A DNA stretch of 64,000 nucleotides from Blastocatellia bacterium (GTDB lineage Bacteria; Acidobacteriota; Blastocatellia; RBC074). Below, in pieces: positions 563 to 61,917 of this stretch (its first letter is position 1; each line of letters opens with the position of its first letter). The stretch is taken from the NCBI GenBank assembly GCA_035275345.1, contig DATEMY010000358.1, forward strand, positions 8,314-72,313, written 5' to 3'. The notes under the pieces were generated by a model. It saw only the letters and a program-made list of their open reading frames with translations. It had not been told where the DNA came from and did not search any database. A program made the translations under genes and the position numbers.

Positions 563-2901
<2,339 letters not shown>

Positions 2902-20429: not shown

Positions 20430-20434
20430 TCGAC

Positions 20435-20505: not shown

Positions 20506-20527
20506 GCCCACCTGGAAAAGAAGGATT

Positions 20528-28675: not shown

Positions 28676-30972
28676 CGACACGAGTGCAAATTTTGGTTCG
28701 GGGCGTCGTGCAAGGCGTGGGGTTTCGCCCATACATCTTTTCGTTGGCCCGGCGTCGCGCGCTGCGCGGGCAGGTGGTTAACAACGCCGCGGGCGTTTTG
28801 ATCGATGTCGAGGGCGAAACGACCGCCGTCGAGCAATTCATTAACGAGATCGAACTGGGGCCGCCGCCGCTCTCGCGGATAGAATCGGTCGAGCGCCGCG
28901 ACAACCTGGCTCCCGCCGACTATCCGGAATTCCGCATCGCCGAGAGCGAATCCGCCGGACGGAAGTCAGTTCACATCGCGGCCGACATCGGCGTCTGCGC
29001 CGATTGCCTGAGGGAACTCTTCGATTCGCGCGACCGGCGCTATCGCTATCCGTTCATCAACTGCGTCAACTGCGGCCCGCGCTTCACGATCATCGAGGAC
29101 GTTCCGTATGACCGCGCGAAGACGACGATGCGCGAATTCGTTATGTGCAATGAGTGCCGCGCCGAATACGAAAATCCTTTCGACCGCAGATTTCACGCCG
29201 AGCCGACGGCCTGCGCGGTTTGCGGCCCGTGGCTTTATCTGACGGACGGGAACGGGCGCGAGCTTGAAACCGGCGACGGCGCGATCACCCGCTCGCGCCG
29301 TCTGCTTTTGAACGGAAAGATTCTCGCCGTCAAAGGCGTCGGCGGATTCCATCTCGCCTGCGACGCGACAAACGCCGAGGCGGTCGGGCGATTGAGGCGG
29401 AAAAAATATCGTGAAGACAAGCCGTTCGCGCTGATGGCCGGTTCGATCGAGGCGATTGAGGAACATTGTTCCGTCTCGACATTCGAGCGTGATTTGTTGC
29501 TCTCCGAGCGCCGCCCCGTAGTGTTGCTCGCGCGCAGGCCCGGTTCGTCCCTGTCGAGCCGGTCGAGCGCGGTGGCGCCCGGTCTGAACTCGCTCGGCTT
29601 TATGCTGCCCTACGCGCCGCTGCATTATCTGTTGCTGGAAAACCTCGACCGCCCGCTGGTCATGACCAGCGGGAACGTCTCGGACGAACCGATCTGCCAC
29701 GAGGATCGAGACGCGCTGGAGCGATTGAGTAAAATCGCCGACCACTTTCTGCTTCACGACCGGCGCATTCACGTCCGCGCGGATGATTCGGTGGTTTGCG
29801 CGCGCGGGAACAAAGAGCTGATCCTGCGCCGCGCGCGCGGCTATGCGCCCCACGCCTTGAAAACCCCTTTCAAATTCGAGCGCGAAATTCTGGCCTGTGG
29901 CGCGGAACTCAAAAACACTTTTTGTCTGACGCGCAGAGATCACGCCTTCATCAGCCATCACATCGGCGACCTGGAAAACCTGGAGACGCTCCGTTCGTTC
30001 GAGCGCGGGATCGAGCATTTCAAACGGCTCTTCAACCTGCGTCCCGAAATCATCGCCCATGACCTGCATCCGGAATACATCTCGACTAAATACGCGATGG
30101 CGCTCGGCGATGAAATGGTCAAAGTCGGCGTGCAGCATCATCACGCGCATATTGCCGGTTGCATGGCCGACAACGGCGTCGATGGCCAGGTGATCGGCGT
30201 GGCAATGGACGGGCTGGGTTACGGGACGGACGGACGTTTGTGGGGATGCGAATTTTTCGTCGCCGAATACGCGCGGGCCGAGCGCGTCACGCATCTCGAA
30301 TACGCGCCGATGCCCGGCGGAGCGAAAGCTATCCGCGAGCCATGGCGGATGGCGGCGATCCACCTGCAGCGGGCGTTGGGCGACGAGGCCTTCGATCTGA
30401 ATCTCGATTTCGTGAAACGAATGGATCGGCGCGCTTACGCGACGTTGCGCCGGATGGCCGAACGGGGAGTCAACAGTCCCGAAACGTCGAGCATGGGGCG
30501 GCTCTTCGACGCCGTGGCGAGTCTCGCCGGCGTGCGCGACGTTGCGCGGTATGAAGGCCAGGCCGCGATCGAGTTTGAGATGGCGGCGGACCCAAGCCAG
30601 AAGAGCGGTTATGAGTTCGACTGTTCCGGCAAGATCATCAAGCCGTCGCCGGTAATTCGCGGCGTCGTCGCCGACCTGCTCCGCCACGTCCCAACGCCGG
30701 TGATCGCGGCGAAGTTTCACAACGCGGTCGCCAGCCTGATTTTCCAGACCGCGCGGCGGATCAGGGCCGAGCGGGGGCTTCATCGCGTGGCCCTTTCGGG
30801 CGGCGTCTTTCAGAATCGTCTGCTTTTGAATCGGGCGATGAGGTTGCTCAAAGCCGACGGCTTCGAGGTCCTCACACACGGCCGCGTGCCGCCCAACGAC
30901 GGCGGCGTCTCGTTCGGCCAGGCGGTCGTGGCGGGCGCGCTGACCAGAGCGGACCGGGCAGGAGGTGTTTGA
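28672..30972 (+). CDS. hypF: Carbamoyltransferase HypF (second copy)
   Basis: Same domain architecture as the first HypF (acylphosphatase, two Zn fingers, YrdC, Kae1-like). ATGA overlap with hypB. Confidence 0.9.
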   Translation: MTTRVQILVRGVVQGVGFRPYIFSLARRRALRGQVVNNAAGVLIDVEGETTAVEQFINEIELGPPPLSRIESVERRDNLAPADYPEFRIAESESAGRKSVHIAADIGVCADCLRELFDSRDRRYRYPFINCVNCGPRFTIIEDVPYDRAKTTMREFVMCNECRAEYENPFDRRFHAEPTACAVCGPWLYLTDGNGRELETGDGAITRSRRLLLNGKILAVKGVGGFHLACDATNAEAVGRLRRKKYREDKPFALMAGSIEAIEEHCSVSTFERDLLLSERRPVVLLARRPGSSLSSRSSAVAPGLNSLGFMLPYAPLHYLLLENLDRPLVMTSGNVSDEPICHEDRDALERLSKIADHFLLHDRRIHVRADDSVVCARGNKELILRRARGYAPHALKTPFKFEREILACGAELKNTFCLTRRDHAFISHHIGDLENLETLRSFERGIEHFKRLFNLRPEIIAHDLHPEYISTKYAMALGDEMVKVGVQHHHAHIAGCMADNGVDGQVIGVAMDGLGYGTDGRLWGCEFFVAEYARAERVTHLEYAPMPGGAKAIREPWRMAAIHLQRALGDEAFDLNLDFVKRMDRRAYATLRRMAERGVNSPETSSMGRLFDAVASLAGVRDVARYEGQAAIEFEMAADPSQKSGYEFDCSGKIIKPSPVIRGVVADLLRHVPTPVIAAKFHNAVASLIFQTARRIRAERGLHRVALSGGVFQNRLLLNRAMRLLKADGFEVLTHGRVPPNDGGVSFGQAVVAGALTRADRAGGV

Positions 30973-47879: not shown

Positions 47880-48911
47880 TCATACCGAATGGGTTTCGTT
47901 AGCGGAGGGCAGGAACGACTCGATCAAATTTCCCAGATTCTGTGCGGTAGCCAGATCATAGATGAACTTGCTGACAGCCAGGTCGAGAATGCCCAGTCCG
48001 AAGGGGCTGAAGATGACCGGACGATTTCCGTCGCTCCGCGCTTCGGCGGCGCCTCTGATGATGTCTCCGATCGTGCAACGTATGAAGTCACGGTTGCCAG
48101 AAAGCCGTTCGGCCAGATGGACAGAGGTTTCGGCCCGGCACACATGATCAACATCATCAACGACGTTGTCAGACGACAGAATGATTTCCGGAGAGAGGTC
48201 TCGCAATGAGACGTGCAGGATCGTGCTGGCGGGTTGGATGAGAGCCGGATCGAAAATATGCGGCGTGCCCGCAGTGGTCGCCATGCTCACGAGCGTCGCG
48301 CTTCCGAAAACCTCATTGAGATCGCTGGCGACTTCGACGTCGATGTGGCCGAAAACTTCCTGACCTCTGACCTTGAATTCAGCGGCCCGCGACGGATCCA
48401 GGTCGAAGACCTTGAACCGTCGCAGATCGGGGAAAGTGGCGCGCAGAAACCGGGCGATTTCAAAGTTAATCGGGCCACAGCCGACCAATCCTGCCGAGCC
48501 GATCTGTTCTCTGCTACAGAGGAGTTTCGCGGCCAGCGCGGCGCTCGCCGCCGTCCGTTTAGCGCTGATCATCGAACCTTCCAGAATGGCTTCCACCCTT
48601 CCCGTCAATAAGTTATTCAGGATCACGACCGCCGAAGCTCGATCCAGATTTTGGGAGACGTTATCCGGAAAGGAGGAGATCCATTTGATGCCGGCGACAT
48701 TGAACCGGTTTCCGAGGTAGGCCGGGAGCGCGATGATTCGGTTTTGTGGCTGGCCGGGGAATCGCAGGAAACTGGAATGCGGTAGCGAACTTTCTCCCAG
48801 CGCATGGATTTCATAGGCCGCCCCCACGATGTCCATGAGATCGGCTTCACGGTCGCTAATGAGCGAGAGGACTTCCTTCGCGGTTAAGATGCGCACACTG
48901 TTGGAATACAT
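47880..48911 (-). CDS. Ornithine cyclodeaminase/mu-crystallin family NAD-dependent enzyme, SbnB-like
   Basis: OCD-family pattern with Rossmann segment GLVGCGPINFEIARFL; 343 aa. Co-clustered with an SbnA-like gene. Confidence 0.7.
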   Translation of the reverse strand: MYSNSVRILTAKEVLSLISDREADLMDIVGAAYEIHALGESSLPHSSFLRFPGQPQNRIIALPAYLGNRFNVAGIKWISSFPDNVSQNLDRASAVVILNNLLTGRVEAILEGSMISAKRTAASAALAAKLLCSREQIGSAGLVGCGPINFEIARFLRATFPDLRRFKVFDLDPSRAAEFKVRGQEVFGHIDVEVASDLNEVFGSATLVSMATTAGTPHIFDPALIQPASTILHVSLRDLSPEIILSSDNVVDDVDHVCRAETSVHLAERLSGNRDFIRCTIGDIIRGAAEARSDGNRPVIFSPFGLGILDLAVSKFIYDLATAQNLGNLIESFLPSANETHSV

Positions 48912-49020
48912 GAAAAACCTTCAGATTCGTTTCTCGGAGATGGTTTACATCCCGGATATTGTTGCGGAACCACTCGTCAGAGTAGATACATTGGTACTGC
49001 AAAGAGCCGTTTCTTAAAGA

Positions 49021-49626
49021 TCAATTCCCGGCGCTTGTCTCTATTTTTTCCAGCCGGCCATTACCATCGAGTGTTTTGAGGTTTATGTCGGCTATGCATC
49101 TGACATTCACATAATCCAACATCAGGGCGCCTTCGACATGAACCACCCCACTTCCGTTTTCAAAATCGGCTTTGCTGAAATCACAAGCATCACGATCCAA
49201 TCTGATGCCCAATTCCGTGCCCCCCTTCGTCTCGGTGAACTTAACATGAACATAATTGCGATCGACCGCCTCCTTGAAGAGCTTAACAGTCTTTTCCGGA
49301 CGCAGCCCTGCTTCAATGACATGGTCGCCTTCGCAAAGTCTATCCACAAGACTCTTCTCACGCGGCCTGTTCGTGTCGGGAGGCGGAGGCGGAGGCGGAG
49401 GGTTCTTAGCCATCTCCTCCATCTTTTTCTTGAGACTGAGGGGCCTCATATCCGTCCAAACTTCCTTGATGAAAGCGAGGCATTCGGCTTTCGGCCCCAC
49501 TTTCCCGCCGTCATTCCAACCGATTGGGTTCTCTTTGTATTCAGGCCAAATCGAATACTGTTCCTCGTGGTTTACGACAACTTTGTAAGTGGTAGTGTCT
49601 TCTTTGTCAGGGTCGGCCCAACTCAT
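49021..49626 (-). CDS. MbtH-like domain fused via a poly-Pro linker to a C-terminal domain of unknown function
   Basis: N-terminal [49 protein letters not shown] matches the MbtH signature. PPPPPPPP linker, then about 110 aa of unassigned domain. Confidence 0.7.
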
Positions 49627-49628
49627 AA

Positions 49629-50192
49629 TTATGTAATCTCCTTTTTATGTGAAGCCATGGCTGCGCGCGCAGCCGGTTGCTCGAACCGGAGCATTCGTTC
49701 GTCTCTTGTGAGAAGACGGCACAGGCCGTATTCCGTCAAGAAAGTTTTCTCTCCGGCCGAAAAGCCCAGTTGAGTACACAGAAACGATGACTGCGCTACC
49801 GCGGCGCCGAGCACAAGCCAGGTGTACTCAAAATTCCTTGGCGCCACGAACAGCCGGTGCGCTTCCAGCATCATTTTCATTGGGATGTTCAGACCGCGAT
49901 ATGATCGGATTACCGCTAATTGCGTGTAACGAGCCGACCTCGCCGACGGGGTAAATTCCAAGCAACATTTTTGGTGTAGCGCAAGATCTCCAGTGGTTTC
50001 GACCACGCTCAGCGTCGCAACGGGCTTACACTGCAGATCATCGATCGCCAAGATATGAAGCGCGTCTGAATTGTCGCTTACTCTTAGCGGCGCGAGCGCA
50101 ATCTTCAGTTCCTGCTCAAAGACGGATCGTCTGATATCCAACATCGCCGCTTCCTGGAAGCGGGTCGTAACCGGCTCTATTATTATCGCCAT
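49629..50192 (-). CDS. Hypothetical protein, possibly GNAT-fold N-acyltransferase
   Basis: 187 aa; weak resemblance to acyl-CoA N-acyltransferase folds; 2-nt spacing to the MbtH-fusion gene. Confidence 0.3.
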
Positions 50193-50376
50193 TTGAATTT
50201 CTCCTTTCCATAACTTGGAGTTTCCGATCCGGCGATCGATCCGATTCGATTTTCCCGCAATCCAATTTGATTACTCGATCCGCCAGATGAAAATATTTAT
50301 CGTCATGATTGATGGCCAATATGCACTTACCTCGACTTTGCGGGCGCCGTCCGCCACAGGCGAGTTGATCTGTTCT

Positions 50377-51429
50377 CTACGAGTAGAGGGTCCTCAAGGG
50401 GAAAGACTTCATTTCCTGGTCGGTTGGCTGCAAGTTCCAAGATCTCCCTCCCTCCTCAAATGGTATCTCCCAGAGGTGTGAGACATCCCCGAAATGTTCC
50501 AAGACCCATTGGTCCGAATAAATCGTGTCCATATATCGATCGCCTCGGTCCGGCAAGATAACTACGCAATTGGAACCGTCCGGAATTCTACCTTGTGACT
50601 TATTTACCGCGCTGATAACGGCTCCCGAAGATCCGCCCGCCAAAATCAACTCTTCCCTGACAAGTCGGCGGCAACCGACAACGCAATCCAGATCGGACAC
50701 CAGGACACACTCATCCGCCAGGTGAGGCTCGTAAAGCGATGGTCTGACCGACGCGCCATGACCTGGGATCAAGCGACGACTTGTCTTCCCGCCGAAGATC
50801 ACACTGCCTAGCGCGTCTACCGCAATTATTCTGGTTCTCAGATCTTGAACGTAGGCGTACTCAGAGCAACCGCGAAGCGTCCCGCATGTGCTTGTCGCAC
50901 AAAACAAGTAATCGACTCGCCCATCCAGGGCCTCGGCGATTTCACGCATGGTTTGATGATGGGCCTGGGCATTCCACAAGTTCGCATATTGATTCGGCCA
51001 AAAGCTGTGTGGAATCTGCGCCGTCAATTGCTTAACCCGATCGATTCGCGCCTGGAGATACTCGCCCGTAAGAGGGTCAGGTACCGTCACACACTCAATC
51101 TCGGCCCCGTACAGTCTCAAAATGTCGAGATTTTGCTTGGTAGTCTTGGGATCCACCACACACACAAACCGCAGGCCGAAGTACCGGCACATTTGAGCCA
51201 GCCCGATTCCCATATTCCCCGAGCTGGACTCGACTACGGTCGCGCCTGGACTAAGCTCCCCCGATATAACGGCATTTTTGATGATAGTCAGCGCAGTTCG
51301 ATCTTTTATGCTCCCGCCGGGATTAACCCCTTCAAGTTTGGCGAATAATCGAAAGCGCGCGTCAGGAAAAATCCGACTGAGCCGCGCCATCGGGGTATTG
51401 CCGATTTTCGAGATTATATCTCCAATCAT
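50377..51429 (-). CDS. PLP-dependent cysteine-synthase-fold enzyme, SbnA-like (N-(2-amino-2-carboxyethyl)-L-glutamate synthase family)
   Basis: NPGGSIKDR PLP-Lys motif, WPNQYAN, ILPDRGDRY, YSDQWV. Pattern closely parallels staphyloferrin SbnA. ATG at 51429 after GGGGAGAG. Confidence 0.75.
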   Translation of the reverse strand: MIGDIISKIGNTPMARLSRIFPDARFRLFAKLEGVNPGGSIKDRTALTIIKNAVISGELSPGATVVESSSGNMGIGLAQMCRYFGLRFVCVVDPKTTKQNLDILRLYGAEIECVTVPDPLTGEYLQARIDRVKQLTAQIPHSFWPNQYANLWNAQAHHQTMREIAEALDGRVDYLFCATSTCGTLRGCSEYAYVQDLRTRIIAVDALGSVIFGGKTSRRLIPGHGASVRPSLYEPHLADECVLVSDLDCVVGCRRLVREELILAGGSSGAVISAVNKSQGRIPDGSNCVVILPDRGDRYMDTIYSDQWVLEHFGDVSHLWEIPFEEGGRSWNLQPTDQEMKSFPLRTLYS

Positions 51430-51478
51430 CGCTTTCTCTCCCCTATTGTCTGAGTCTGTTGTTCCGGACAACCGAAAG

Positions 51479-51888
51479 TTAAACGGGGACGGCTGCTGTT
51501 GATGCAATGGACGTCTTCAACGCATTGGCTAGGCCCCGGACATTTGGCTCTCGTAGGATGGTGGTGTGGTTTCCGGGAACCCGGCGCCGAGTTATTTGCG
51601 CCGATGCATATTTGCCCCAACCCAGAGTCGAATCTGCGGGTTTGTTCTCGTGTCCATCATCGGCGGTGAAGATTGCGATCTCCCCGTGAAAAATTGCGGG
51701 ATTGTATTTTCGCAGAGCCGCCATGTTTTTCTTGGCGACTTCCAGGAAGCGCCGGGCATAGGTGATTTCGATATCAGGTGGTCGAACGGTAAATCAAGAA
51801 CGCCAGGGCTGCCCTTTAACCGGTTGGTCCAATAGTCGAGCTGCGATGTCAGCCCCCCACTTTGCAGCCATTTCTGAAATATCCTCAT
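51479..51888 (-). pseudogene. Frame-scrambled remnants of NRPS condensation and thioesterase domains downstream of the adenylation domain
   Basis: ORF 51592-51888 encodes LDYWTNRLKGSPGVLDLPFDH (condensation-domain N-terminal region). ORF 51479-51724 in another frame encodes AIFTADDGHE...VPGNHTTILREPNVRGLANAL (thioesterase C-terminal region). Neither is a full domain. Confidence 0.45.
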
Positions 51889-53236
51889 GATCGCGTAACA
51901 GCTTTTCTATTTCGCCCAATTCAACTCTTACACCCCTGATCTTGACCTGGTTATCCAGCCGACCGATCAACTCGAAATCCCCATTGAGCGTGACTCGACC
52001 GATGTCTCCTGTTCGGTAGATGAGGTCCTGAGGATCGTTTACGTTAAAGGGGTTCCGAATGAACGACTCCCGAGTCAGTTCAGGTTGTCGATAATATCCA
52101 TGGGAGCGATAGGGAGTGCGGATGAAGATTTCACCGACGACCCCTGGTGGACAGACCTCCATCTTTTCATCGAGCACCAACGCCTTGGCCCCTCTGATCG
52201 GCTTTCCCACCGGGATCAGACGGCGTTCCTGATCTGCAGGTTGGATAAAATAACAGAACTTGGCAAGCGTAGTTTCTGTAGGCCCATAAAGATTGACCAG
52301 TTGGATACGGTCGCCAAAAACGCTATACCATTTCTTCAGATCTGCAGGAAAAATCGGTTCTCCCGCCAGGAGGATGTACTTTAACGATTGGAAAGAATCA
52401 GGGCTCAGGGGCTCATTCAATATTGACCTGAACAGGCTGGGGGTGCAATGCATCAGGTTGATCTGGGCCGAATCAATCCATCTGACCAATTTCTCCGAGT
52501 CGAGCGCCGTCTCCCGATCCGGCGGGAGAGATAGTGTGGCTCCCGCGCATAAAGGTAGAAAGATATCTCTGAGAAACGGGTCAAAGGAGGGCGGAGTGAG
52601 CTGACTTACCCGGAAGTTTTCGTTTACTCCACATGTCTCGATCTCCCAATCTATGAAATGTAATAGACCGCGGCGGCTCCCGGCGATTCCCTTTGGTTTA
52701 CCGGTAGAGCCGGAAGTAAAGTAGATATAGCCGAGGTCCTTCGGGTTGTCGTTTGATACCTTCAACTCTTCCCCGGAAAAACTGGCGCAATGAGGAATCT
52801 TTCTCACGTGAACCGCCTGACCGGCCTTAATCACAATGATGGAGCAATCCGAACGGTTGTTTGCCGCGATCTGCTCGGCCGCTTCCTCGAATCCTTTTTC
52901 CACTATGAATCCTTGCGGCTCCGCTGTCGAGACCATTGCTTTGAGTCGGTTGACCGGGTATTTAGTATCCAGGGGCGCGAAAACGCAATTTGCCTTCAGT
53001 ACTCCGATGATGGATGCCACCAATTCAGCCGTATCCTCTATCAGTAAAGCCACGACGGAGCCATTAGCGACCCCGGCCGACGTCAACAGATCTCGCACCT
53101 TATTCGACCGCTGTTCCAACTCGTCATAAGAAAGTATGTGATCTTGCCATACTATTGCGTCTTTAGATCCGCGCTTTTTACCGCGCTCAATCAGTAAGTC
53201 AACGATTTCGCTGTTAATCGTTTGAGTAAGCTCCAT
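51794..53236 (-). CDS. NRPS adenylation domain, stand-alone and truncated after core A8 (lacks A9/A10 and any carrier domain)
   Basis: Cores A1 LSYDEL, A3 YFTSGSTGKPKGI, A4 FDPF, A5 NLYGPTETT, A7 YRTGDIGR, A8 GRLDNQVKIRGVRVELGEIE. Only about 35 aa follow A8. ATG at 53236 after AAGGAG. Confidence 0.7.
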   Translation of the reverse strand: MELTQTINSEIVDLLIERGKKRGSKDAIVWQDHILSYDELEQRSNKVRDLLTSAGVANGSVVALLIEDTAELVASIIGVLKANCVFAPLDTKYPVNRLKAMVSTAEPQGFIVEKGFEEAAEQIAANNRSDCSIIVIKAGQAVHVRKIPHCASFSGEELKVSNDNPKDLGYIYFTSGSTGKPKGIAGSRRGLLHFIDWEIETCGVNENFRVSQLTPPSFDPFLRDIFLPLCAGATLSLPPDRETALDSEKLVRWIDSAQINLMHCTPSLFRSILNEPLSPDSFQSLKYILLAGEPIFPADLKKWYSVFGDRIQLVNLYGPTETTLAKFCYFIQPADQERRLIPVGKPIRGAKALVLDEKMEVCPPGVVGEIFIRTPYRSHGYYRQPELTRESFIRNPFNVNDPQDLIYRTGDIGRVTLNGDFELIGRLDNQVKIRGVRVELGEIEKLLRDHEDISEMAAKWGADIAARLLDQPVKGQPWRS

Positions 53237-53746
53237 TGGCGCGCTCCTTTTTGAATGGGTATAGGATGAAGAAGTAATGTGGAAGAGATGACAAGCTTCG
53301 CTGGAGTGATTGCTGCTGATGCCCTTGAACATGGTCCGGGGGCTGACCAAACCCGGAAACGTCAAAACCTGATTAAGCCCGGTGAGATCGACTTCGCGCG
53401 TCGCCCCAGGATAACAGAGCGCCTATGAGATAATTGATTAGCAGCTCTCATTGCCATTATCCATGCGGCTCAGTTATTCCCAAACACAGACAGGCTACCG
53501 CTATTGCGTTTGGAATCTTCCTCCGCCCTCGGCTTCCGAGTAGGCTACCGCCATCGCAATTCTGCCCACCCTCCCAGACTTTTCCGACGGTGATACCTAA
53601 CGAGCGCCGATTACCAAGGGAATGAGCGCGCAGGGCGCAGAACATTTTTCTCTCTGATCGACTTCCTTAACTGACAAAACTATGAACGCGCTTACGCCAA
53701 GTCTTTTTATCTTTCCGGCTCCTGCTTCTGAAACAACACTCAAGGG

Positions 53747-56368
53747 TTATGCGGCTTTTGCTAGGCATGCGCCTTGCGTTGCCTTACGACCGGGATGAAC
53801 CAACGCCGGTCTGAACCCATGGCGATCAGCCAGCCAACCCATCTCCCTGACCTTATCAATGTCTAGATCAATTCCGAGGCTGGTATCTTCAAACCTATGC
53901 TCCAAAGCCAGGATCATAGTTTCGGCCATGCAGGCATAGGCAAGCCCGGTGTCTATATCCAGGGTGAAACTGATCTTAGAGTCGCCCGGCAAACTCACCA
54001 CGCCGCCATCGATCACAAAGATATCAGGACGGCTCATTCTGACGGCTCGACTTACATTCGGCGGGCGTGAGATATCACATACAACCGCCCCCTCTTTGAT
54101 GTATTCAGGCGCCGCCAAATCACCTGCTACATTTGTCGAAGTAATCACTACGTCAGCTTCTAGGAGCGACTGACGCATGTCGCGAGTGTCGGTAATAACA
54201 CACAAGCGGCGCCCCATTTCTGTGGCGAGTCCAATCCAATCTATCCTGCCTCTGTCCTGACGTCCGGCAAGCAGGAGGTCGCAGATCTCACCGGCGAGTG
54301 TTCCTTTAAGAAAGCTTTTGCCTTGCAAACCCAGTTCCTGGATCGAGCGTAAAATTTCCACGCTTACTTGTACCAGGCGGCGCTTACTCTCCGCCGGACG
54401 AGCCGGATTTCCGATTAAAAACAGTCTCTCTACATGCTGCGAGAGCAGAATGGAGATGGCGCGCCCTATCGAACCTGTGGCGCCCACAACTGCCGTACAG
54501 CTTGTAGACAAACGGCGCCCAGTCATCTCAAGCGCCGCTTCGATGGATTGCTTGGCGGCGACGGCAGTATAGGAGTTGCCAGTGGTCAGCGGCGGCAATC
54601 CATTGTCTCCGAGGTAAAGACCACCACGCGTTACTATCGACGTATACGCGCCCAATCCGATTATTTTCGCTCCCCTTTCCTGAGCTATCCGCACCGCCGT
54701 CCTTATTTCTGATACGGCCTCGTAATAGGGCATCTGCGTCAGCTCTTCCGCGGTGCGCGGCACGATAATGAACTCGCCGTAAGCAGTCTGACCAGTCTTT
54801 GAGACGACGTGCGCATCGCCGATTACGAATGGGTCAAAATTCTCGGCGACACATGAGGCCAGTCGCGCAACCTGCCGATCTGAAAGTATGCTAAGGCTTG
54901 TGTCGATGTTCGCATAGTCACGCACTGTCAATGGATGCAGAAGAAAGGCAAAGCGATTGACTCTATCGGTCACGGGGAATTGGTAGACGTTCGAACGCCC
55001 CTGGGGCTTCAACTCCTTGACGTCAACATCTATTCCCGTAAGATGGGTGGTGAAATACGCCGTGTTGCGTAACTCCAATGCATCCAGGGTATCTTCAAAA
55101 GCTTCCAGGAAAAGCTCACACTCCTTCCAGGTAGCGATCAGCGGAGGTTCGATGCGGAGCACCCCGCCATCGTTCAGGGTATATCCTAGGCGTACGCCGC
55201 TTACCGCCAGCATACGACTCACAACGAGCGAAGCTAAGGCTTCATTTTCTCCAAGGCAGCCCAGCAGACCGGAACCCCAGTTGAAGCGGTTGATGCCTAA
55301 ACGAATTCCCAGCATGTAGCCGCGTCCGCTAATTACGTTGACAATGTTCGGATGTTTCTCCTTAAGATACTGCAATTCCTGTTTCAAGCGAGCGCCGTTA
55401 TCCGCAACCTGCCTGATTAACTGGCGGTCGTTTTCCTCCAGGAGATCCAGCGTGGCCAATCCGATTCTGCACGCGAGAGTATTTCCGGCGAAAGTAGAAG
55501 TGTGCTTCAGCGCGAAATCATCATTGTAAACATCTTCCTTACATAAGCAGGCGCCGATCGGCGCCAGCCCGCCGCCGAGGGCTTTAGCAATGGTAATAAC
55601 ATCCGGAATAACCCCCTCAGTATCGCAGGCAAACATCGCACCGGTGCGCCCCAAACCTGTTTGGATTTCATCGACGATCATCTTGGTCCCGCTTTTCCTA
55701 CAGATTTCTCCGGATTGCGCGAGATACCCTGGAGGCGCCTCGATGATCCCCCCTTCTCCTTGAATCGGTTCGACGATGAAGGCCGAATAAAACCGGCTGG
55801 CTAACGCGCGTTCAAGCGCCCCAAGATCGCCGAAAGGAACATAATCAAACCCATTGACCGGCGCCCCGAAACCTTCCTGATACTTTCTCTTATCGGTTGC
55901 GGACAGGGCGCCCAGGGTTTTCCCATGGAAACCGTTATTGGTGGCCAGAACACCGATCCTGCCTGTGCTGGACCGGCACAGCTTAAGAGCGGCTTCGACC
56001 GTTTCAGCCCCACTGTTGGCAAAGGTCACGTACTTCATACCCGGTGGCGCCACATTGACCAGCCGCTTTGCTAATTCACCGGCGGCTTCAAGGCAGGAGG
56101 GTTGAACTAAGCTCGGCTCAAGACGTGTTCGCACCTGCTCAACGGCTTGCCATATATATGGATTGTTGAACCCGAATGGGAGGGCGCCATATTGAGCCAG
56201 AAAGTCCAGATAACGCCTTCCCGACTGATCGTAAAGGTAACAACCTTCCCCCCGAACGAACACCTTATCCATCTCAAATTGCGACATCAACCGCCCAAGG
56301 CGCGGATTCATATGGTTGAAGAACGGATGATCCCGTCTTAAAGACTTTTCTTGTTCGTCTTTCATCAT
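53747..56368 (-). CDS. Bifunctional fusion: class-III (omega) aminotransferase domain + acyl-ACP reductase (AAR)-like NAD(P)H-dependent reductase domain
   Basis: N-terminus has PLP motifs DEIQTGLGRTG and ITIAKALGGG. C-terminal 340 aa (GAYTSIVTRGG...TTGNSYTAVAAK...AVVGATGSIGRAISILL...DKVREMGWLADRHGFRPALV) parallels cyanobacterial acyl-ACP reductase. Start ATGATG at 56368 after AAAGGAG. Confidence 0.75.
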   Translation of the reverse strand: MMKDEQEKSLRRDHPFFNHMNPRLGRLMSQFEMDKVFVRGEGCYLYDQSGRRYLDFLAQYGALPFGFNNPYIWQAVEQVRTRLEPSLVQPSCLEAAGELAKRLVNVAPPGMKYVTFANSGAETVEAALKLCRSSTGRIGVLATNNGFHGKTLGALSATDKRKYQEGFGAPVNGFDYVPFGDLGALERALASRFYSAFIVEPIQGEGGIIEAPPGYLAQSGEICRKSGTKMIVDEIQTGLGRTGAMFACDTEGVIPDVITIAKALGGGLAPIGACLCKEDVYNDDFALKHTSTFAGNTLACRIGLATLDLLEENDRQLIRQVADNGARLKQELQYLKEKHPNIVNVISGRGYMLGIRLGINRFNWGSGLLGCLGENEALASLVVSRMLAVSGVRLGYTLNDGGVLRIEPPLIATWKECELFLEAFEDTLDALELRNTAYFTTHLTGIDVDVKELKPQGRSNVYQFPVTDRVNRFAFLLHPLTVRDYANIDTSLSILSDRQVARLASCVAENFDPFVIGDAHVVSKTGQTAYGEFIIVPRTAEELTQMPYYEAVSEIRTAVRIAQERGAKIIGLGAYTSIVTRGGLYLGDNGLPPLTTGNSYTAVAAKQSIEAALEMTGRRLSTSCTAVVGATGSIGRAISILLSQHVERLFLIGNPARPAESKRRLVQVSVEILRSIQELGLQGKSFLKGTLAGEICDLLLAGRQDRGRIDWIGLATEMGRRLCVITDTRDMRQSLLEADVVITSTNVAGDLAAPEYIKEGAVVCDISRPPNVSRAVRMSRPDIFVIDGGVVSLPGDSKISFTLDIDTGLAYACMAETMILALEHRFEDTSLGIDLDIDKVREMGWLADRHGFRPALVHPGRKATQGACLAKAA

Positions 56369-58424
56369 TGTCGCTCCTTTCATTTTTCGTGGGGTAAACA
56401 AGAAGGAATGACGCTAATTGGGATATGCTTGGATCGCCTCTGAAAAGGTTGTCAATGGGAACCTCTATCCCAAGCGATTCTTCAATACTGCTTACAAGCT
56501 CGGTTGCGGCAAGAGAGTCCAGACCATAGCGGGCAATAGGCTGATCCGTGTCTATTTTATGGGGGCTGATATTAAACATTGAGGAACACTTAAGCGACAG
56601 CCAAGCTTTCAATGACTCCAAGGTCCGCGGCGCGTCTTCGGGCTGGAGAGTTTGCCCGCTCGCCGACTGGCTGGCTGTGAACTGGCGTCGATAAACCGAC
56701 TCCAGGCTTTCGTTCAGAAACGCGGAGCGGACTGCGCTGCGCTGAATCTTACCGCTGGATGTTTTCAGTAAGCTTCCAGGTCTAATCAATACGATGGTGG
56801 AAATATCTATTTCGTGTTCTACCAGGATCGCCTGGCGGACGCTATCCACCACTTCATTCATATCGACACTGTTTCGACGCTCACGATTCAATTCGGCGAC
56901 TAAGATCAATCGCTCCGTCTCATCACCAGCTACGGCGAAAGCCGCCGAACATCCCGGACGCAACGCCGGGTGACTCGCTTCCGCCGTAATCTCTATATCC
57001 TGCGGGTAATGGTTGCGTCCGCGAATGACGATCAGGTCCTTAATGCGCCCGGTCACATATAAGTCGCCATGAAAGAGGACTCCAAGGTCTCCCGTGCGTA
57101 GGTATGGACCTTCATTGGTATCGGTGAGCCGCGCGCGGAAAGTCGCATCGGTCAACTCCGGTCTTCCCCAATATCCTTGAGCCACGGCGGCGCTCGATAC
57201 CCAGATTTCTCCCACTTGACATTCATCACATTTAGTGAGGGTCTGTGGATTAACGGTAATAATTCGTTCTCCGAGCCATGTCCGTCCGCTGCTTACAAGC
57301 GTTACTCCGTCCTGAAGACGACTGGACACAATCGCTCTGTGATCTTCCAGCCCGGCTTTATCGAAAGTAGTGACGGCCGGAGCTTTTGAACCTACGCCTC
57401 CACTCACAAATAAGGTAGCTTCGGCGAGTCCATAGCATGGATATAACGCCTCCGGGCGAAACCCGTATGGTGAAAAGGCCTCGGCAAATCGTCTCAGCGT
57501 CTCATCTCGAACAGGTTCCGAACCGTTGAATGCGGTTCTCCAGCAACTCAGGTCCAACCCCTCGAGGTCTTCCTGACGCGCTTTACGCACACAGAGATCG
57601 TATGCGAAGTTTGGCCCCCCGCTGAAAGTGGCCCTGTATTTCGATATGGCCTTCAACCAACATGCCGGTTTCTGTAGGAACTCCGTAGGCGCCATCAGGT
57701 AACACGGAGCGCCATTGTACATTCCCGCAAGAATGTTCCCGATTAGGCCCATGTCGTGATACATCGGTAACCATGACACGATGACAGTGTCGCCATCATG
57801 TCGGAGGCCTTCTCTCATCATCGCCTGGTTATATAGGAGGTTACCGTGACTCACCAGCACGCCTTTCGGCGTCGAAGTGGAACCGGATGTGTATTGCAGA
57901 AATGCGATGGTCTCCTCATTAACTCTGGTTTCCTTCCAGAGTTCCGCCTGCCCCAGGTCGACGTCGTCTGTTATAACCCACCGTATGGATCTTAACTTGG
58001 GGATCTGATCCAACTGGTTTTGAAGGCGTGAGAATATAGCCGAGGTAGTCAATGCGACTACCGGGTTTGAATCATCAATAATAGCTAGTAAACGTCCCAG
58101 ATTTTGGTTCAATCGTGGCGGATTAGCGGGAACGGCCACAGCCCTTCCATAAAGACAGGCGTAAAAAGCGACGATATAATCCAACCCTGGCGGGTAGAGA
58201 AGCAGGACCCGTTCATCCTGCGCCTTCAGCTCCTGAAGATGGGCGGCGACGGCGCGGGCTTTATGCTGTAATTGAGCGAAGGTCAACCGGTCCGCCTCTT
58301 CACAATCAGATAGAAAAACATAGCTTGGCTGGTCCGGTTGTATTTTGGCCATTGCGTTCATTACATCAATGAACGAAGAGGCGCGACTCAAATCAAATCC
58401 ATATTGTGATATTTGACTATTCAT
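56274..58424 (-). CDS. Fatty acyl-AMP ligase (FAAL) fused to a C-terminal acyl carrier protein domain
   Basis: AMP-binding cores (YTSGSTSTPKGV, YRTGDLG, GRIKDLIVIRGRNHYPQDIE). C-terminal PP-binding segment LDSLAATELVSSIEESLGIEVPIDNLF with Ser in DSL. 8-nt overlap (ATGAATAG) with the upstream receiver gene. Confidence 0.8.
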   Translation of the reverse strand: MNSQISQYGFDLSRASSFIDVMNAMAKIQPDQPSYVFLSDCEEADRLTFAQLQHKARAVAAHLQELKAQDERVLLLYPPGLDYIVAFYACLYGRAVAVPANPPRLNQNLGRLLAIIDDSNPVVALTTSAIFSRLQNQLDQIPKLRSIRWVITDDVDLGQAELWKETRVNEETIAFLQYTSGSTSTPKGVLVSHGNLLYNQAMMREGLRHDGDTVIVSWLPMYHDMGLIGNILAGMYNGAPCYLMAPTEFLQKPACWLKAISKYRATFSGGPNFAYDLCVRKARQEDLEGLDLSCWRTAFNGSEPVRDETLRRFAEAFSPYGFRPEALYPCYGLAEATLFVSGGVGSKAPAVTTFDKAGLEDHRAIVSSRLQDGVTLVSSGRTWLGERIITVNPQTLTKCDECQVGEIWVSSAAVAQGYWGRPELTDATFRARLTDTNEGPYLRTGDLGVLFHGDLYVTGRIKDLIVIRGRNHYPQDIEITAEASHPALRPGCSAAFAVAGDETERLILVAELNRERRNSVDMNEVVDSVRQAILVEHEIDISTIVLIRPGSLLKTSSGKIQRSAVRSAFLNESLESVYRRQFTASQSASGQTLQPEDAPRTLESLKAWLSLKCSSMFNISPHKIDTDQPIARYGLDSLAATELVSSIEESLGIEVPIDNLFRGDPSISQLASFLLVYPTKNERSDNDERRTRKVFKTGSSVLQPYESAPWAVDVAI

Positions 58425-58806
58425 GGCTCACCTTTCCGACAAGCTCAAATACAATTCGAGCGACTTCCGACAGAGGCTTCGGCTTGTGCAGGAACGCGTG
58501 CGCGCCGCAATCTCGGGCGGCCGACTCTACATCGCTGGAACCGTAAGCCGTTAAGACAATAACTCGCATTTCAGGGAATCGTTCCCGAGCCATACTTATT
58601 ACCTCGAACCCGTCCAGGCTATGAGTTCCACTTAAGTCCAAATCTACAATCACAGCTGAATAGCAAGATGTGTTAAGGAGACTCGCAGCTTCGTCTACGG
58701 CATGGGCGCAATCAACTTGATAGTCATACAGCTTGAAGTACTCGCGCATTGCGAAGCAGAGCGTCGCTTTATCGTCAACCATCAGTATTTTTCTCTCGCC
58801 GTACAT
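58417..58806 (-). CDS. Stand-alone response-regulator receiver domain (CheY-like)
   Basis: 129 aa; conserved DD...D...K receiver pattern (MVDDK, VIVDLDL, LTAYG, HAFLHKP). Confidence 0.75.
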   Translation of the reverse strand: MYGERKILMVDDKATLCFAMREYFKLYDYQVDCAHAVDEAASLLNTSCYSAVIVDLDLSGTHSLDGFEVISMARERFPEMRVIVLTAYGSSDVESAARDCGAHAFLHKPKPLSEVARIVFELVGKVSHE

Positions 58807-58817
58807 GCGCTCCTTTT

Positions 58818-58833
58818 AGCAAATCGCGCTCCA
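58818..58833 (-). promoter_or_regulatory. Candidate sigma-54 promoter (-24/-12): TGGAGCGCGATTTGCT, GG-N10-GC spacing correct
   Basis: Minus-strand sequence CGCCTCGTGGAGCGCGATTTGCTAAAAGGAGCGCATG. Matches 10 of 12 defined positions of TGGCACG-N4-TTGCW. Sits only about 11 nt upstream of the receiver ATG, so a leaderless transcript would be implied. Confidence 0.25.
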
Positions 58834-58939
58834 CGAGGCGTATGATCTCGTCCCTCTACTAAACCTCGAAAATTGACGATATTGATTTTAGAGTGAGAGT
58901 GGATCAGGAGGCGGGTTGTCTGAGATTCAGAATAGGATT

Positions 58940-60295
58940 CTAGACTTTGGACGTGGTTATCTGGAACTTCTTGATTTTCTGGTAAAGCGAACTTCGGGGG
59001 ATACCAAGGCGCTTCGCCGCGCGTTCGACCTGGCCATTCTCCTCCGCAAGCACCAGTTCGATGTGTCGACGTTCGAGTTCCAGCAGGGAAAGTTGTGAAT
59101 CATAGACCGGCGTTTCCCTCTTCGCCGCGTCATCGAAGCGCAGGTCTGTGGCCAGCAGAATGCGCCGCTCGCTGAGCAGCGCTGCGCGTTCGAGCACATT
59201 GCGCAACTCACGTATATTCCCCGGCCAAGCATACGCCAGAAGCGCGCGTTCCGCATCCGGCGATAGTTCCAAGTCGTTACGACCGAGGTCGGCGGCGCAT
59301 TTTGCAAGCAGATGCCGCGCGAGCGCCGGTATGTCCTCGACTCTTTCCCGGAGGGCCGGCGTCATCAGTGGAATTGTGCTGATTCGATAGTAAAGGTCAC
59401 TGCGGAATCTATTTTCCCTCATTAATCGGCTGAGGTCCTGACAGGTAGCGGCGACCAGGCGGACATCGACTTGCCGGTCGCGAACACTTCCCAGCCGACG
59501 GAACTTTTGTTCCTCCAGAACCTTGAGTAGTTTTGGTTGCACTTGCAAATCGACGTCTCCGATCTCGTCAAGGAATACCGTGCCGCGATGGGCCACTTCG
59601 AATAGGCCGAGTTTGCTTGTCGTCGCCCCGGTGAATGCCCCCTTCTCGTGGCCGAACAACTCAGTTTCAAGAAACCCTTGTGACAACCCCGCACAGTTAA
59701 GATCAACAAAAGGTTCTTCGCATCGGGCGCTGTTGTTATGTATCCACTGCGAGAGCACGCCCTTGCCAACGCCCGTTTCGCCGAGAAGCAGGATTGGGCT
59801 CTCCGTCGACAACACCCTTTTTGACTGTTCGGCCAATTGTCTGATGGCGGCGCTAGAGCCGATGAACGGATCGACGGCTTGGCGGGCTTGTTGCGACTTC
59901 CGGGCAATTTGCTTCCGAAGGTTGCGCTGGTTTTCAAGCAAACGCTCGAGAATGACCAGAAGTGTTGAAAGGTCAAGCGGCTTGGTAAGAAATTGCTCGG
60001 CGCCTTCCTTAATCGCCCGCACCGCCAGGTCGATTGACCCGTGGCCGGTCAGAATAATTAGAGGGGCGCCCGGATCTATCGCTTTCAGTCGAGGTAAGAG
60101 ATCGAGCGCAGTGCCGTCCGGCAATAAATAGTCGATGACGGCTGCATCGGGGCGCATAGCCCTAAACATATCTTCCGCTCCCCGACAACAGTTCGTGTCA
60201 TAAGCCTCATACCCGTGCGCCTCAAGAAATTCGCGCATTCCGAATCGGACGCCGGATTCGTCATCTACTATCAAAATCTTACTCTTCGACATCAA
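58940..60295 (-). CDS. Sigma-54-dependent response regulator (NtrC family): receiver + AAA+ sigma-54 activator + Fis-type HTH
   Basis: Receiver (ILIVDDE...D...K). Walker A LLGETGVGKGV. GAFTGA loop (HEKGAFTGATT). Arginine finger region. C-terminal HTH RAAKRLGIPRSSLYQKIKKF. Confidence 0.8.
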   Translation of the reverse strand: MMSKSKILIVDDESGVRFGMREFLEAHGYEAYDTNCCRGAEDMFRAMRPDAAVIDYLLPDGTALDLLPRLKAIDPGAPLIILTGHGSIDLAVRAIKEGAEQFLTKPLDLSTLLVILERLLENQRNLRKQIARKSQQARQAVDPFIGSSAAIRQLAEQSKRVLSTESPILLLGETGVGKGVLSQWIHNNSARCEEPFVDLNCAGLSQGFLETELFGHEKGAFTGATTSKLGLFEVAHRGTVFLDEIGDVDLQVQPKLLKVLEEQKFRRLGSVRDRQVDVRLVAATCQDLSRLMRENRFRSDLYYRISTIPLMTPALRERVEDIPALARHLLAKCAADLGRNDLELSPDAERALLAYAWPGNIRELRNVLERAALLSERRILLATDLRFDDAAKRETPVYDSQLSLLELERRHIELVLAEENGQVERAAKRLGIPRSSLYQKIKKFQITTSKV

Positions 60296-60768
60296 AGCAC
60301 ATCCCCTAAAATTTTATTAGCCGCGCTCGGCCGGGATACTCACGACAATTTCGGCCCCGTCCCCTGAAGGATTTGCCTGCCATGATCTTTCCGCTATGGT
60401 CCTGCGCAATCCGCTGCGCAATAGCGTTATCCACCCTCCTGTAAAAAGGCAGTTTAATTAGAAAGCCGCGGCTTCATGCGCTGATTCTTCCCGACTAGCC
60501 CTTGAGCCTGATTGTAATTTTGCAACCGCAGTTTTGCCAAACCCTTCTGAAAGTTTTAGAAAGGGCGATTGCGCGAGGACAGACTTCACCTGCGAGCGTC
60601 GTCAAGATGGCTTCTGCTTTAGTGATGCGGATTCCGCCGAACAGTCCGGCTACGACGGTAATGAAACAAGGACCGATGTGGTTTTCATAGGAATCGAGCT
60701 AAGGAATTTTCCGCTATTACGTCTGGACGCCAACAATAACCCCGTCCCATAGGTCGCCGAACTCGACT

Positions 60769-61513
60769 TCAACGCCGCCCCTGCAAATTAGCCCACTCGC
60801 CTGACTGAATGAAACCGGCCCAATAAAACGGATGGCGGCGATCCTGGCTCTTCAGCATCCGCAACTGCACCTGGCGCAACGCCGCGCTGCGTCCTCGCCC
60901 CTGTTGTAAGGCCTTGTAATAATCGACCATCAGGCCCAATGTCTGGTGGCGCAAGGTCCGGCAGAAAAAAGCCATGCGTAGCAATGTGAAGCAGGTGGGG
61001 GCCGCGCATCTGCTTGACCGCCACTTCGGTCGCTTGATCGCTCAACAGAACCACGGCTTCAGGCAACACCTTTTTGAGCGCCAGCGCCTCGTCCGCTGTC
61101 GCCGATAATGGAAGGAAGAAAAGGCCGTCGAGGTTAGCGCTGGAGGTTTTGGCGTCTTGAGTCCCCTGGCGTACATTTGCCACCTCGCCATAATTCGGAT
61201 TGGCCACGATCAAGGCCGGCTGCCTGCTCGACTGCTTCACCTGCAAGCGCAGCAGATCGCGCCCGCTTGTCAGATAACTGAACTCGTAGCGTTCAACCAG
61301 AAATCGAGATCGCTCATCCACGAGCGCGGCAAAAGGGATGAGATTGAGCATCCCATCCGGCGAGAGCAACACCCTGAGCGTCGCGCCCAACCGCGTACGC
61401 ACTGGCTGCATCACCAGCCGGTCCAACGCGCGCGCCCATCGCGACACATCGCGCCGCTTGGGATCGCGAAGCGCCTGGCGCCAGGCTTCGATCTCGCGAT
61501 CTATCGCCTTCAC
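60769..61513 (-). pseudogene. CHAT (caspase-like) domain gene, apparently frameshifted
   Basis: ORF 60788-61513 carries the HIATHG catalytic-His region and then turns into non-CHAT sequence. A separate frame (60769-60984) encodes the CHAT C-terminal HPFYWAGFIQSGEW. Confidence 0.45.
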
Positions 61514-61917
61514 TTCGCCGCCAATTCTTCGAGAAGCGATCCGCCGATTACCGCCGTGATATCCACGACGGTCTTTTCTTGCTGGTCGACCTGCGCGTTA
61601 ACTTCGAGCGTCCGCAATCCGGCCGCGACCTCCTGCCCGCGCAGCATTTTGACAGCATAGAGCAGTTGGGAATCGAGTTTTTGCTGCGCGGGCGAGCGCG
61701 ACGCCTTCTCATCCAGCAGTGATCGAATCTGGCGCAGCGCGCTATCGGAAATTCTCGGGGCGCGGCCTTGAGTTGCGCCAATCACAACCGAACTGGACGC
61801 AGGTCGGCTGAAGAGGTAAGGCCAACCGCCGATGCCGGCCGTAACCAGCAATCCCATGATCATAAGCAGAATCATCGAACCGAACAGAAACTTGAAGTAA
61901 TTGGCTGGAACTTTCAT
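61510..61917 (-). CDS. Hypothetical N-terminally membrane-anchored protein; ATGA-coupled to (or N-terminal part of) the CHAT gene
   Basis: TM helix FKFLFGSMILLMIMGLLVTAGIGGW, then soluble region; stop overlaps the CHAT ORF start. Confidence 0.35.
   Translation of the reverse strand: MKVPANYFKFLFGSMILLMIMGLLVTAGIGGWPYLFSRPASSSVVIGATQGRAPRISDSALRQIRSLLDEKASRSPAQQKLDSQLLYAVKMLRGQEVAAGLRTLEVNAQVDQQEKTVVDITAVIGGSLLEELAAK

Follow-up and report, generated by a model that had tools for sequence, protein, structure and literature searches.

Do genes that stand together under one regulator also work together? This question is raised by a locus at 47880-60295 of a 64,000-nucleotide (nt) stretch of DNA (here called the window; all positions are its coordinates), which belongs to a soil metagenome contig (ENA ERZ27257057 k141_2494077) of a Blastocatellia bacterium (Acidobacteriota). 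Eleven open reading frames (ORFs) of the locus lie on the minus strand in the same orientation, with short gaps or overlaps between them. A preliminary description of this DNA had presented them as one biosynthetic gene cluster (BGC), with a domain combination unknown from any characterised cluster, for a lipo-amine or N-acylated diamino-acid product. All eleven ORFs are where it placed them, and nearly all of its domain calls, such as acyl-ACP reductase (AAR)-like, SbnA-like and fatty-acid--AMP ligase (FAAL), were upheld by profile and structure searches, Pfam and NCBIfam included. The fatty-amine-type pair of a FAAL-acyl carrier protein (ACP) didomain and a transaminase/reductase fusion (TA/TR), the L-2,3-diaminopropionate (L-Dap) pair SbnA/SbnB and the sigma-54 activator above them are all present. 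Beyond that description, the locus holds a 36-codon asparagine-synthetase (AsnS) relic, a 72-codon ABC-exporter tail and a conserved sigma-54 promoter.

What did not survive is the idea that the eleven genes form one coherent pathway: the non-ribosomal peptide synthetase (NRPS) is in fragments, the exporter has been deleted down to its tail, and the two halves of the locus are found in separate loci of relatives. In our opinion the locus is likely to be an eroded mosaic of natural-product modules rather than a designed pathway, and its unusual enzyme repertoire appears to come largely from deletion and juxtaposition. This reading is favoured because the modules are separate elsewhere and the relatives keep the full genes.

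A conserved cassette, probably for fatty amines

The half of the locus that is transcribed first, here called module 1 (53.7-60.3 kb), comprises an NtrC-type activator, a stand-alone receiver, the FAAL-ACP didomain and the TA/TR fusion (Table 1). The receiver gene overlaps the FAAL gene by 8 nt, and the latter overlaps the TA/TR gene by 38 nt. The best NCBIfam matches of the FAAL-ACP protein are all fatty-acid--AMP ligases. The transaminase half of TA/TR matches Aminotran_3 from position 12 to 403 of 403 (E 3.5e-85), with the Schiff-base lysine, by inspection, in ITIAKALGGG. Over its C-terminal approximately 400 residues the protein resembles the N-terminal domain of PigE (PDB 4PPM, 6e-28) and also the cyanobacterial acyl-ACP reductase SeAAR (6JZQ, 1e-18). 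Here the GxxGxxG motif reads GATGSIG, and a cysteine in CMAET is aligned to the CMAET of PigE. The family models score below their cutoffs, NF053554 for PigE with 545 bits (cutoff 850) and TIGR04058 with 92 bits (cutoff 450), and the order of the two domains is opposite to that of PigE.

The same three components, an adenylating ANL/FAAL-ACP protein, a class-III transaminase and an AAR-type reductase, make up the TamA/TamH system of tambjamine YP1 biosynthesis in Pseudoalteromonas tunicata. In TamA, an adenylation domain joined to an ACP loads a C12 acid (PMC9594044, PMC5939613). In TamH, an N-terminal transaminase precedes an AAR-like thioester reductase, which depends on NADH and has GxxGxxG as well as a catalytic cysteine (PMC9594044). 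In a one-pot reaction in vitro the two enzymes make amines from fatty acids, and TamH refuses acyl-CoA (PMC9594044, PMC5939613). The same two domains in reversed order carry out thioester reduction and transamination in PigE of the prodigiosin pathway (PMC8341465). The claim of an unprecedented domain combination was thus wrong for the key pair, which both systems precede.

By analogy with TamA/TamH, the FAAL domain would adenylate a free fatty acid and load it onto its own ACP. The acyl chain would then pass to the cysteine of the TA/TR reductase domain and be reduced there with NAD(P)H to an aldehyde, which the pyridoxal phosphate (PLP) domain would convert by transamination, with glutamate as the probable donor, into a long-chain primary amine. 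The architecture, motifs, conservation and purifying selection of module 1 are observed; the substrate, product and cofactor are those predicted from the analogy.

The activator would drive a sigma-54 promoter directly upstream of the coupled receiver/FAAL-ACP/TA-TR operon. TGG and GATTTGCT of this element are invariant in five of five aligned loci, against a mean column identity of 61%. As a single site the element does not rise above chance in the window, where the count of the sigma-54 consensus is at or below chance, as are the results of the sigma-70 promoter and terminator scans; the promoter is called because of its conservation across loci and not because of its single-site score. Some 85 nt upstream of the -24 element, just past the activator stop codon, lies a palindrome that is kept as GTCTGAATCTCAGAC in three relatives (L004, L002 and L006) and may represent the activator binding site. 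Together, the conserved element and the adjacent activator support a sigma-54-dependent operon. The -12 element is only about 12 nt from the receiver ATG (58806-58833, minus strand) and an apparent Shine-Dalgarno sequence, AAGGAG, would precede the transcription start; the mRNA would therefore be near-leaderless, or the start is a different one.

Five further cassette loci, all metagenomic, were compared (L001, L002, L004/L005 and L006), and all keep the order of receiver, FAAL-ACP and TA/TR at 70-82% identity. The receiver before the FAAL gene is 69-75% identical in L001, L002, L004 and L006, and the activator is 89% identical to its L004 counterpart. Pairwise dN/dS, an average over both lineages of each pair, is 0.16-0.18 for TA/TR, 0.17-0.20 for FAAL-ACP, 0.17-0.26 for the receiver and 0.12 for the activator, and the cassette values are no higher in pairs with the window than in pairs without it. 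Given the conserved promoter and a dN/dS of about 0.17 the cassette looks functional, and the sigma-54-driven operon of module 1 probably is.

Synteny with the relatives ends exactly at the TA/TR stop codon. Downstream of the TA/TR gene every relative carries a 174-aa NusG paralogue (Pfam NusG 4.8e-17; e.g., L004:12139-12663) and, after it, a second sigma-54 activator, both of which are absent from the window. The arrangement recalls the LoaP-type antiterminators of BGCs. The window also has no counterpart of the approximately 2.2-kb PAS histidine-kinase gene that precedes the first activator in L004/L005 and L006. By blastn, L004 2811-2910 corresponds to window 60562-60462 and L004 from 5152 onward to the window from 60422 onward; L006 shows the same pattern, and the flanks of the kinase gene are contiguous in the window at 60422-60462. 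Another observation concerns L006, which lies on a second contig of the same sample: its FAAL-ACP gene is cut to three short fragments (L006:9591-9958) between intact receiver and TA/TR genes. With most of the FAAL gone, this looks like an independent erosion of the same cassette, and loci of this family are evidently liable to erode.

The genes downstream of the cassette vary: a ketosynthase (KS)-first polyketide synthase (PKS) and an NRPS in L004, and an MbtH fusion, an ankyrin protein, a radical SAM protein and a FAAL-NRPS in L001. The PKS in L004/L005 starts with KS and lacks a loading module. This would suit a pair serving initiation plus release, in which FAAL-ACP primes the neighbouring PKS/NRPS, with KS or C at the start of its first module, and TA/TR reductively releases and aminates its final product; in the window such a pair would be idle or short-circuited to a fatty amine. 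Reduction followed by transamination is indeed a known release logic of polyketide alkaloids (cited in PMC9594044). We nevertheless regard this role as unlikely, since TamH, the only characterised enzyme of this architecture, acts directly on the acyl-ACP of its partner, the two overlapping genes stay together whatever lies downstream, and L002 has no synthetase or other assembly line in the approximately 10 kb fetched downstream of its cassette.

The block stands out in composition, with a GC content of 0.52-0.54 against approximately 0.60. Recent horizontal transfer was considered as an explanation and rejected: the cassette is equally low in GC (0.52-0.53) in all relatives compared, so that low GC is not specific evidence of recent transfer.

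TA/TR relatives at 77-82% identity occur in many soil contigs. At approximately 50% identity, fusions of about 875 aa are widespread in Symbiobacterium, Thermaerobacter, Stigmatella, Archangium, Streptomyces and Rokubacteria, spanning Bacillota, Myxococcota, Actinomycetota and others. The homologue of Symbiobacterium thermophilum, a cultured Firmicute (AP006840.1 855273-873900), for example, has 875 aa and is 51% identical to that of the window.

Probable remains of a synthetase cluster

Module 2 (47.9-53.4 kb) would be what remains of a Dap-containing non-ribosomal peptide cluster. SbnA, SbnB, a GNAT-fold protein and an MbtH-type partner are intact in it, while the synthetase seems to be reduced to a stump of its adenylation (A) domain with scraps of condensation (C) and thioesterase (TE) domains, and the exporter to its last 72 codons. 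The synthetase region was read by three-frame translation of 51400-53800. The A domain is normal through A3, A5, A7 and A8 (GRLDNQVKIRGVRVELGEIE), after which similarity is lost and unrelated sequence runs to the stop codon. The stump is 67% identical to residues 1-469 of an approximately 642-aa protein in locus L008 in which an A domain is followed by a peptidyl carrier protein (PCP) domain, and all close homologues are such A-PCP proteins of 620-660 aa. The nucleotide homology ends near 51873 (blastn). As the alignment to the approximately 642-aa homologues stops at residue 469, A9 and A10 with the catalytic lysine are missing from the ORF. All homologues have a carrier domain, but here no PP-binding match came from the ORF or from any reading frame between 51.4 and 53.8 kb.

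The C relic yields weak matches only, to Pfam Condensation (E 0.27, positions 184-214 of 456) and to an NCBIfam NRPS model (E 0.0066). Behind it the reading returns to the frame of the A domain with the TE tail. The weak Pfam match of the TE relic is corroborated by 87.6% nucleotide identity to the TE tail of L019, a locus from a different soil sample in which this tail is longer. Upstream of 51781-51784 L019 continues as TE and the window switches to the C scrap, which fixes the junction at this point. No catalytic C or TE core remains in the locus, and the NRPS is on this evidence dead, being an A-domain stump with C and TE scraps.

In L008 an AsnS gene precedes the A-PCP gene, and the window carries its AsnS relic upstream of the A stump. 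L007-L009 (e.g., L008:2758-13502) constitute a conserved Acidobacterial mini-cluster with a KS-like protein of 716 aa, an aminotransferase, a methyltransferase, AsnS, A-PCP, a type II TE and a phosphopantetheinyl transferase (PPTase). This mini-cluster is the apparent source type of the A-domain and AsnS relics. The possibility that the A stump and the TE tail derive from one synthetase was rejected, as the A homologues belong to this other cluster type, whose stand-alone TE does not match the TE tail of the window.

On the other side of the TE tail, L019 continues with a 517-aa B12/radical-SAM gene (Pfam Radical_SAM), SbnA, a 581-aa ABC exporter, the GNAT gene (81% identity to that of the window) and the MbtH fusion (89%). 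The window lacks a 1.77-kb segment with the radical-SAM gene; the 58-bp direct repeat that flanks the gene in L019 is a single hybrid copy here. Nucleotide alignment with L019 further reveals that, at window 50337/50339, the ABC gene has lost 1.53 kb, and by this comparison the loss of the exporter is a deletion in the window lineage.

Could these junctions be chimeric joins between strains or between repeated NRPS sequences, made during assembly from a genome that has the complete genes? The contig name (k141_...) is that of a short-read, MEGAHIT-style assembly, NRPS genes are notorious for mis-assembly, and L006, with its truncated FAAL, is from the same sample. Still, the identical 480-aa truncated A ORF, which runs across the first junction, was recorded from NCBI, ENA and Logan sources, and a one-off assembly error is therefore unlikely. 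The junctions fall at the 58-bp repeat, at microhomology or at none, all too short to collapse at k=141, and the ABC tail is kept in the frame and position expected for a deletion. We consider an artefact quite improbable.

The accessory enzymes of module 2 are better preserved. SbnA and SbnB should form L-Dap from O-phosphoserine and glutamate, as is established for their family. The SbnB gene is 1.5 kb from that of SbnA, with the GNAT and MbtH genes, 2 nt apart, between them. SbnA is 93.5% identical to its L019 counterpart, and dN/dS against L019 is 0.19 for SbnA, 0.36 for GNAT and 0.11 for MbtH. The gene table of a 22-kb JGI contig (3300071325) lists, besides SbnB, SbnA and the MbtH fusion, an ORF of 181 aa, an M28 peptidase, a protein in which radical SAM is fused to condensation, and an NRPS of 4560 aa. 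Because this contig pairs the set with so large an NRPS, the SbnA/SbnB/MbtH genes would normally serve a large Dap-using synthetase.

In no relative examined do the cassette and the SbnA/SbnB/MbtH set share a locus, and several of these loci lie beside large intact NRPS or PKS genes. Recurrence of the whole gene neighbourhood, which the preliminary description had left to comparative genomics, was checked, and no intact version of the full architecture was found: close TA/TR relatives have no SbnA/SbnB, and relatives of MbtH and SbnA have no cassette in the available DNA. That the eleven genes are nonetheless an intact cryptic BGC, one assembly line in which the short A protein and the MbtH fusion activate Dap for condensation, appears to us highly improbable. 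In favour of it, the genes form a compact, co-oriented set below one activator and include the MbtH partner, but the A protein has neither its C-terminal subdomain with the A10 lysine nor a carrier domain, and the C (25 codons) and TE (approximately 95 codons) pieces are in different frames and without catalytic motifs. Furthermore, the nearest A homologues come from another cluster type (methyltransferase, AsnS, A-PCP, TE, PPTase), a scrap of whose AsnS lies upstream.

Accessory proteins and possible products

The GNAT-fold protein itself has no Pfam match. Its AlphaFold2 (AF2) model (pLDDT 92.9) has a GNAT fold, with Foldseek probability 1.0 to many GNAT structures, and 18 of 42 aligned family members match GNAT Pfam models at a permissive E<=1 (best 3.4e-6). 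The family is small, with 112 representatives in 1.8 billion proteins. Most of its members stand alone: among approximately 19 loci whose flanks are long, NRPS-type neighbours occur in approximately three, and SbnA/SbnB neighbours are present in L019 only. Three loci were found in GTDB genomes, with uninformative neighbours (cytochrome c biogenesis genes, a transposase). The protein could acetylate a small molecule for self-resistance, or it could N-acylate like FeeM.

The latter function would allow a minimal pathway independent of any NRPS, in which the FeeM-like GNAT protein joins the acyl group of FAAL-ACP to the L-Dap of SbnA/SbnB, giving N-acyl-Dap, or in which the fatty amine is acylated. 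The structure of the N-acyl amino acid synthase FeeM (2G0B) ranks sixth for the GNAT model, with full-length coverage, a TM score of 0.63-0.66 and 10% identity; acyl-homoserine-lactone synthases match as well, and five of the 42 family members match FeeM PF21926 at E<=1 (best E 0.005). All the ORFs needed are intact and co-oriented, with dN/dS below 0.4. The best structural matches are, however, ordinary small-molecule GNAT acetyltransferases, and the place of the gene next to the exporter in L019 suits a self-resistance acetyltransferase. The scarcity of NRPS-type and SbnA/SbnB neighbours in the family also tells against a minimal pathway, as do the 2.2 kb of relics between the halves and the fact that the FAAL cassette and SbnA/SbnB never occur together in relatives. 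We therefore judge it rather improbable.

The MbtH protein is unusual in carrying a second domain. The first 70 residues score 108 bits against PA2412 and have the conserved tryptophans and the SIWP...GW motif. The C-terminal domain of approximately 110 residues matches CBF_beta (PF02312) with 26-28 bits, just above the cutoff of 25, and has the matching fold. With hhalign it aligned to an approximate sequence of human CBF-beta at E 2e-4, a 14-residue stretch of the domain being aligned to IDLQRLDGMGCLEF; a reverse profile search of PDB sequences with the domain was not significant (E 0.9). Homologues of the fusion number more than 3700, with 77-90% identity among the best 120, and nearly identical copies from soil metagenomes run into the thousands; those in the examined loci sit in Blastocatellia NRPS/PKS clusters. 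A literature search for MbtH combined with CBF-beta found no paper, and one for bacterial CBF-beta homologues returned only an unrelated paper on HIV Vif-CBF-beta. Rather improbable is the bolder view that the sigma-54 fatty-amine cassette, together with its NusG paralogue and activators, is a portable unit that Blastocatellia put before varied assembly lines and that here, having lost the synthetase, would still make an NRPS-independent lipo-diamino compound with SbnA/SbnB and a FeeM-like GNAT, and, linked to this, that the MbtH partner carries a true homologue of metazoan CBF-beta. If true, the homologue would point to an unknown layer of protein-protein interaction in non-ribosomal peptide synthesis.

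Several points weigh against the erosion reading. All eight non-relic genes are intact, and the dN/dS values of SbnA, GNAT and MbtH against L019 (0.11-0.36) indicate purifying selection, so that module 2 may have kept a function. The A stump is still an open reading frame, which suggests that erosion began only recently, and dN/dS is averaged over both lineages. Both the radical-SAM indel and the differences in presence of the kinase, NusG and second activator could run in either direction, and the C relic has weak statistical support. As for module 1, the likeness to TamA/TamH is one of architecture and motifs; TA/TR stays below the NCBIfam cutoff for PigE and differs from PigE in domain order. 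TA/TR of intact relatives might also off-load the end product of a neighbouring assembly line. Finally, the Symbiobacterium TA/TR gene has no FAAL or ACP neighbour, standing beside a helix-turn-helix (HTH) protein and a 307-aa protein without a Pfam match, and FAAL adjacency is thus not universal for the fusion family.

For an eroded mosaic, then, the expected products are few. Of the lipo-amine or N-acylated diamino acid proposed earlier, the enzymes for a fatty amine and for L-Dap are there, and the NRPS that would join the two halves is fragmentary. No NRPS product is expected, because no gene in the locus activates or condenses L-Dap; at most, its gene content suggests, a fatty amine and free L-Dap would be made, the latter possibly N-acylated by the GNAT protein. 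Module 1 is probably functional and module 2 is of uncertain use.

The remainder of the window is of housekeeping character, with two HypF genes, alternative complex III, cytochrome oxidase, a NiFe hydrogenase and a TonB-dependent receptor, and no other NRPS, PKS or PPTase gene is present elsewhere in the 64 kb. The two HypF carbamoyltransferase genes are both full-length and 26 kb apart (499-2901, plus strand, 800 aa; 28654-30972, plus strand, 772 aa), with the NiFe hydrogenase large subunit gene (20375-22324) between them. Next to the locus, at 60788-61917 (minus strand), a 241-aa ORF holds the first half of a CHAT domain only (profile positions 3-155 of 289) and is preceded by an overlapping 135-aa ORF without hits; it may be another broken gene beside the cluster. 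An Rfam scan gave no match at E <= 0.1, and a repeat search gave only a few short matches of low identity.

Table 1. Genes, relics and regulatory elements of the locus, in window coordinates
Feature	Position	Strand	Basis or remarks
SbnB-type NAD-dependent enzyme, 343 aa, second L-Dap step	47880..48911	-	TIGR03944 413.1 bits (cutoff 326.9), positions 2-327 of 327
MbtH-like domain, poly-proline linker and C-terminal CBF-beta-fold domain, 201 aa	49021..49626	-	PF03621 71.9 bits (cutoff 27)
GNAT-fold acyltransferase (predicted), 187 aa	49629..50192	-	AF2 model and Foldseek
ABC-exporter 3' tail, ~72 codons	50119..50337	-	Translation SRGKCILAINHDDKYFHLADRVIKLDCGKIESDRSPDR, the C-terminus of the 581-aa L019 ABC transporter
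SbnA-type PLP enzyme, 350 aa, first L-Dap step	50377..51429	-	TIGR03945 430.1 bits (cutoff 349.95), positions 3-304 of 304
58-bp sequence, single hybrid copy	51468..51525	-	Direct repeat flanking the 517-aa B12/radical-SAM gene in L019
TE relic, last ~95-100 codons	51479..51784	-	Pfam Thioesterase E 0.11, positions 144-221 of 226
C-domain relic, ~25 codons, LDYWTNRLKGSPGVLDLPFDH	51777..51852	-	Resembles mid-C region; frame differs from both neighbours
Truncated NRPS A-domain ORF, 480 aa	51794..53236	-	TIGR01733 364 bits
AsnS relic, 36 codons	53312..53419	-	tblastn 80.6% identity to aa 167-202 of L008 AsnS; blastn 82.8%
TA/TR, 854 aa	53747..56311	-	N-terminal class-III PLP transaminase, C-terminal AAR/PigE-type thioester reductase
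FAAL-ACP	56274..58424	-	AMP-binding 3.8e-63, AMP-dom_DIP2-like, PP-binding 1.3e-12, DSL serine
Stand-alone receiver, 129 aa	58417..58806	-	Response_reg 8.9e-18; single REC, translationally coupled to FAAL gene
Sigma-54 promoter-like element TGGAGCGCGATTTGC (GG-N10-GC)	58819..58833	-	Directly upstream of receiver gene
Palindrome TCTGA-ATC-TCAGA	58918..58932	-	Just past activator stop codon
NtrC-type sigma-54 activator, 450 aa	58940..60292	-	REC, Sigma54_activat 2.8e-62, HTH_8, GAFTGA present
Kinase junction	60423..60461		~2.2-kb PAS histidine-kinase gene here in L004/L005 and L006

Comparison with known systems

The components of the locus are all of known kinds: a TamA/TamH-like module, an SbnA/SbnB pair and a decayed NRPS cluster. 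With TamA/TamH the window pair shares the domain order, the logic of two proteins encoded by adjacent genes, the GxxGxxG motif and cysteine, and the predicted chemistry. It differs in that no bipyrrole (MBC) biosynthesis genes are found among the ORFs of the locus or of the window, which is thus not a tambjamine cluster, in the size of TA/TR (854 vs 941 aa) and in its FAAL-type adenylation domain. Moreover, the operon starts with a receiver, is predicted to be sigma-54 controlled and belongs to Acidobacteriota. PigE, from the 2-methyl-3-n-amylpyrrole (MAP) branch of prodigiosin biosynthesis in Serratia, has the same two catalytic domains, and its reductase is the best PDB and NCBIfam match of the one in TA/TR. 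In PigE, however, the reductase is N-terminal and the score of TA/TR stays under the cutoff of the PigE model, and the substrate of TA/TR is presumably a plain fatty acyl-ACP and not a 3-acetyloctanoyl thioester. The TamA/TamH logic, characterised so far only in a marine gammaproteobacterium, recurs in soil Blastocatellia, which are rich in BGCs, as a conserved operon under predicted sigma-54 control, and the widespread TA/TR fusion of approximately 875 aa offers a pool of candidate fatty-amine biocatalysts.

Like SbnA/SbnB of staphyloferrin B and of Dap-containing non-ribosomal peptides, the window pair passes the equivalog cutoffs over the full length. Unlike in staphyloferrin B biosynthesis, no NRPS-independent siderophore (NIS) synthetases accompany the pair, which lies among the remains of an NRPS cluster with the GNAT and MbtH genes in between. 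The MbtH partner resembles PA2412 of the pyoverdine pathway in its N-terminal 70 residues and tryptophans. Canonical MbtH-like proteins are single-domain proteins of 60-80 aa, to which the window protein adds the poly-proline linker and the CBF-beta-fold domain of approximately 110 residues. Among Acidobacterial NRPS systems the fusion appears not to have been described before, and it is peripheral to the mosaic nature of the locus.

As in decayed BGCs, the synthetase genes of the locus are truncated, tailoring and export genes are left as scraps, accessory genes persist, and relatives have the genes in full length. The locus departs from such clusters in that its fatty-amine operon and regulator appear fully preserved and under purifying selection. 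Five separate lesions, invisible in a list of domains, came to light through comparison with the sister contigs; a striking, never-seen combination of domains can come from deletion and juxtaposition and not from design.

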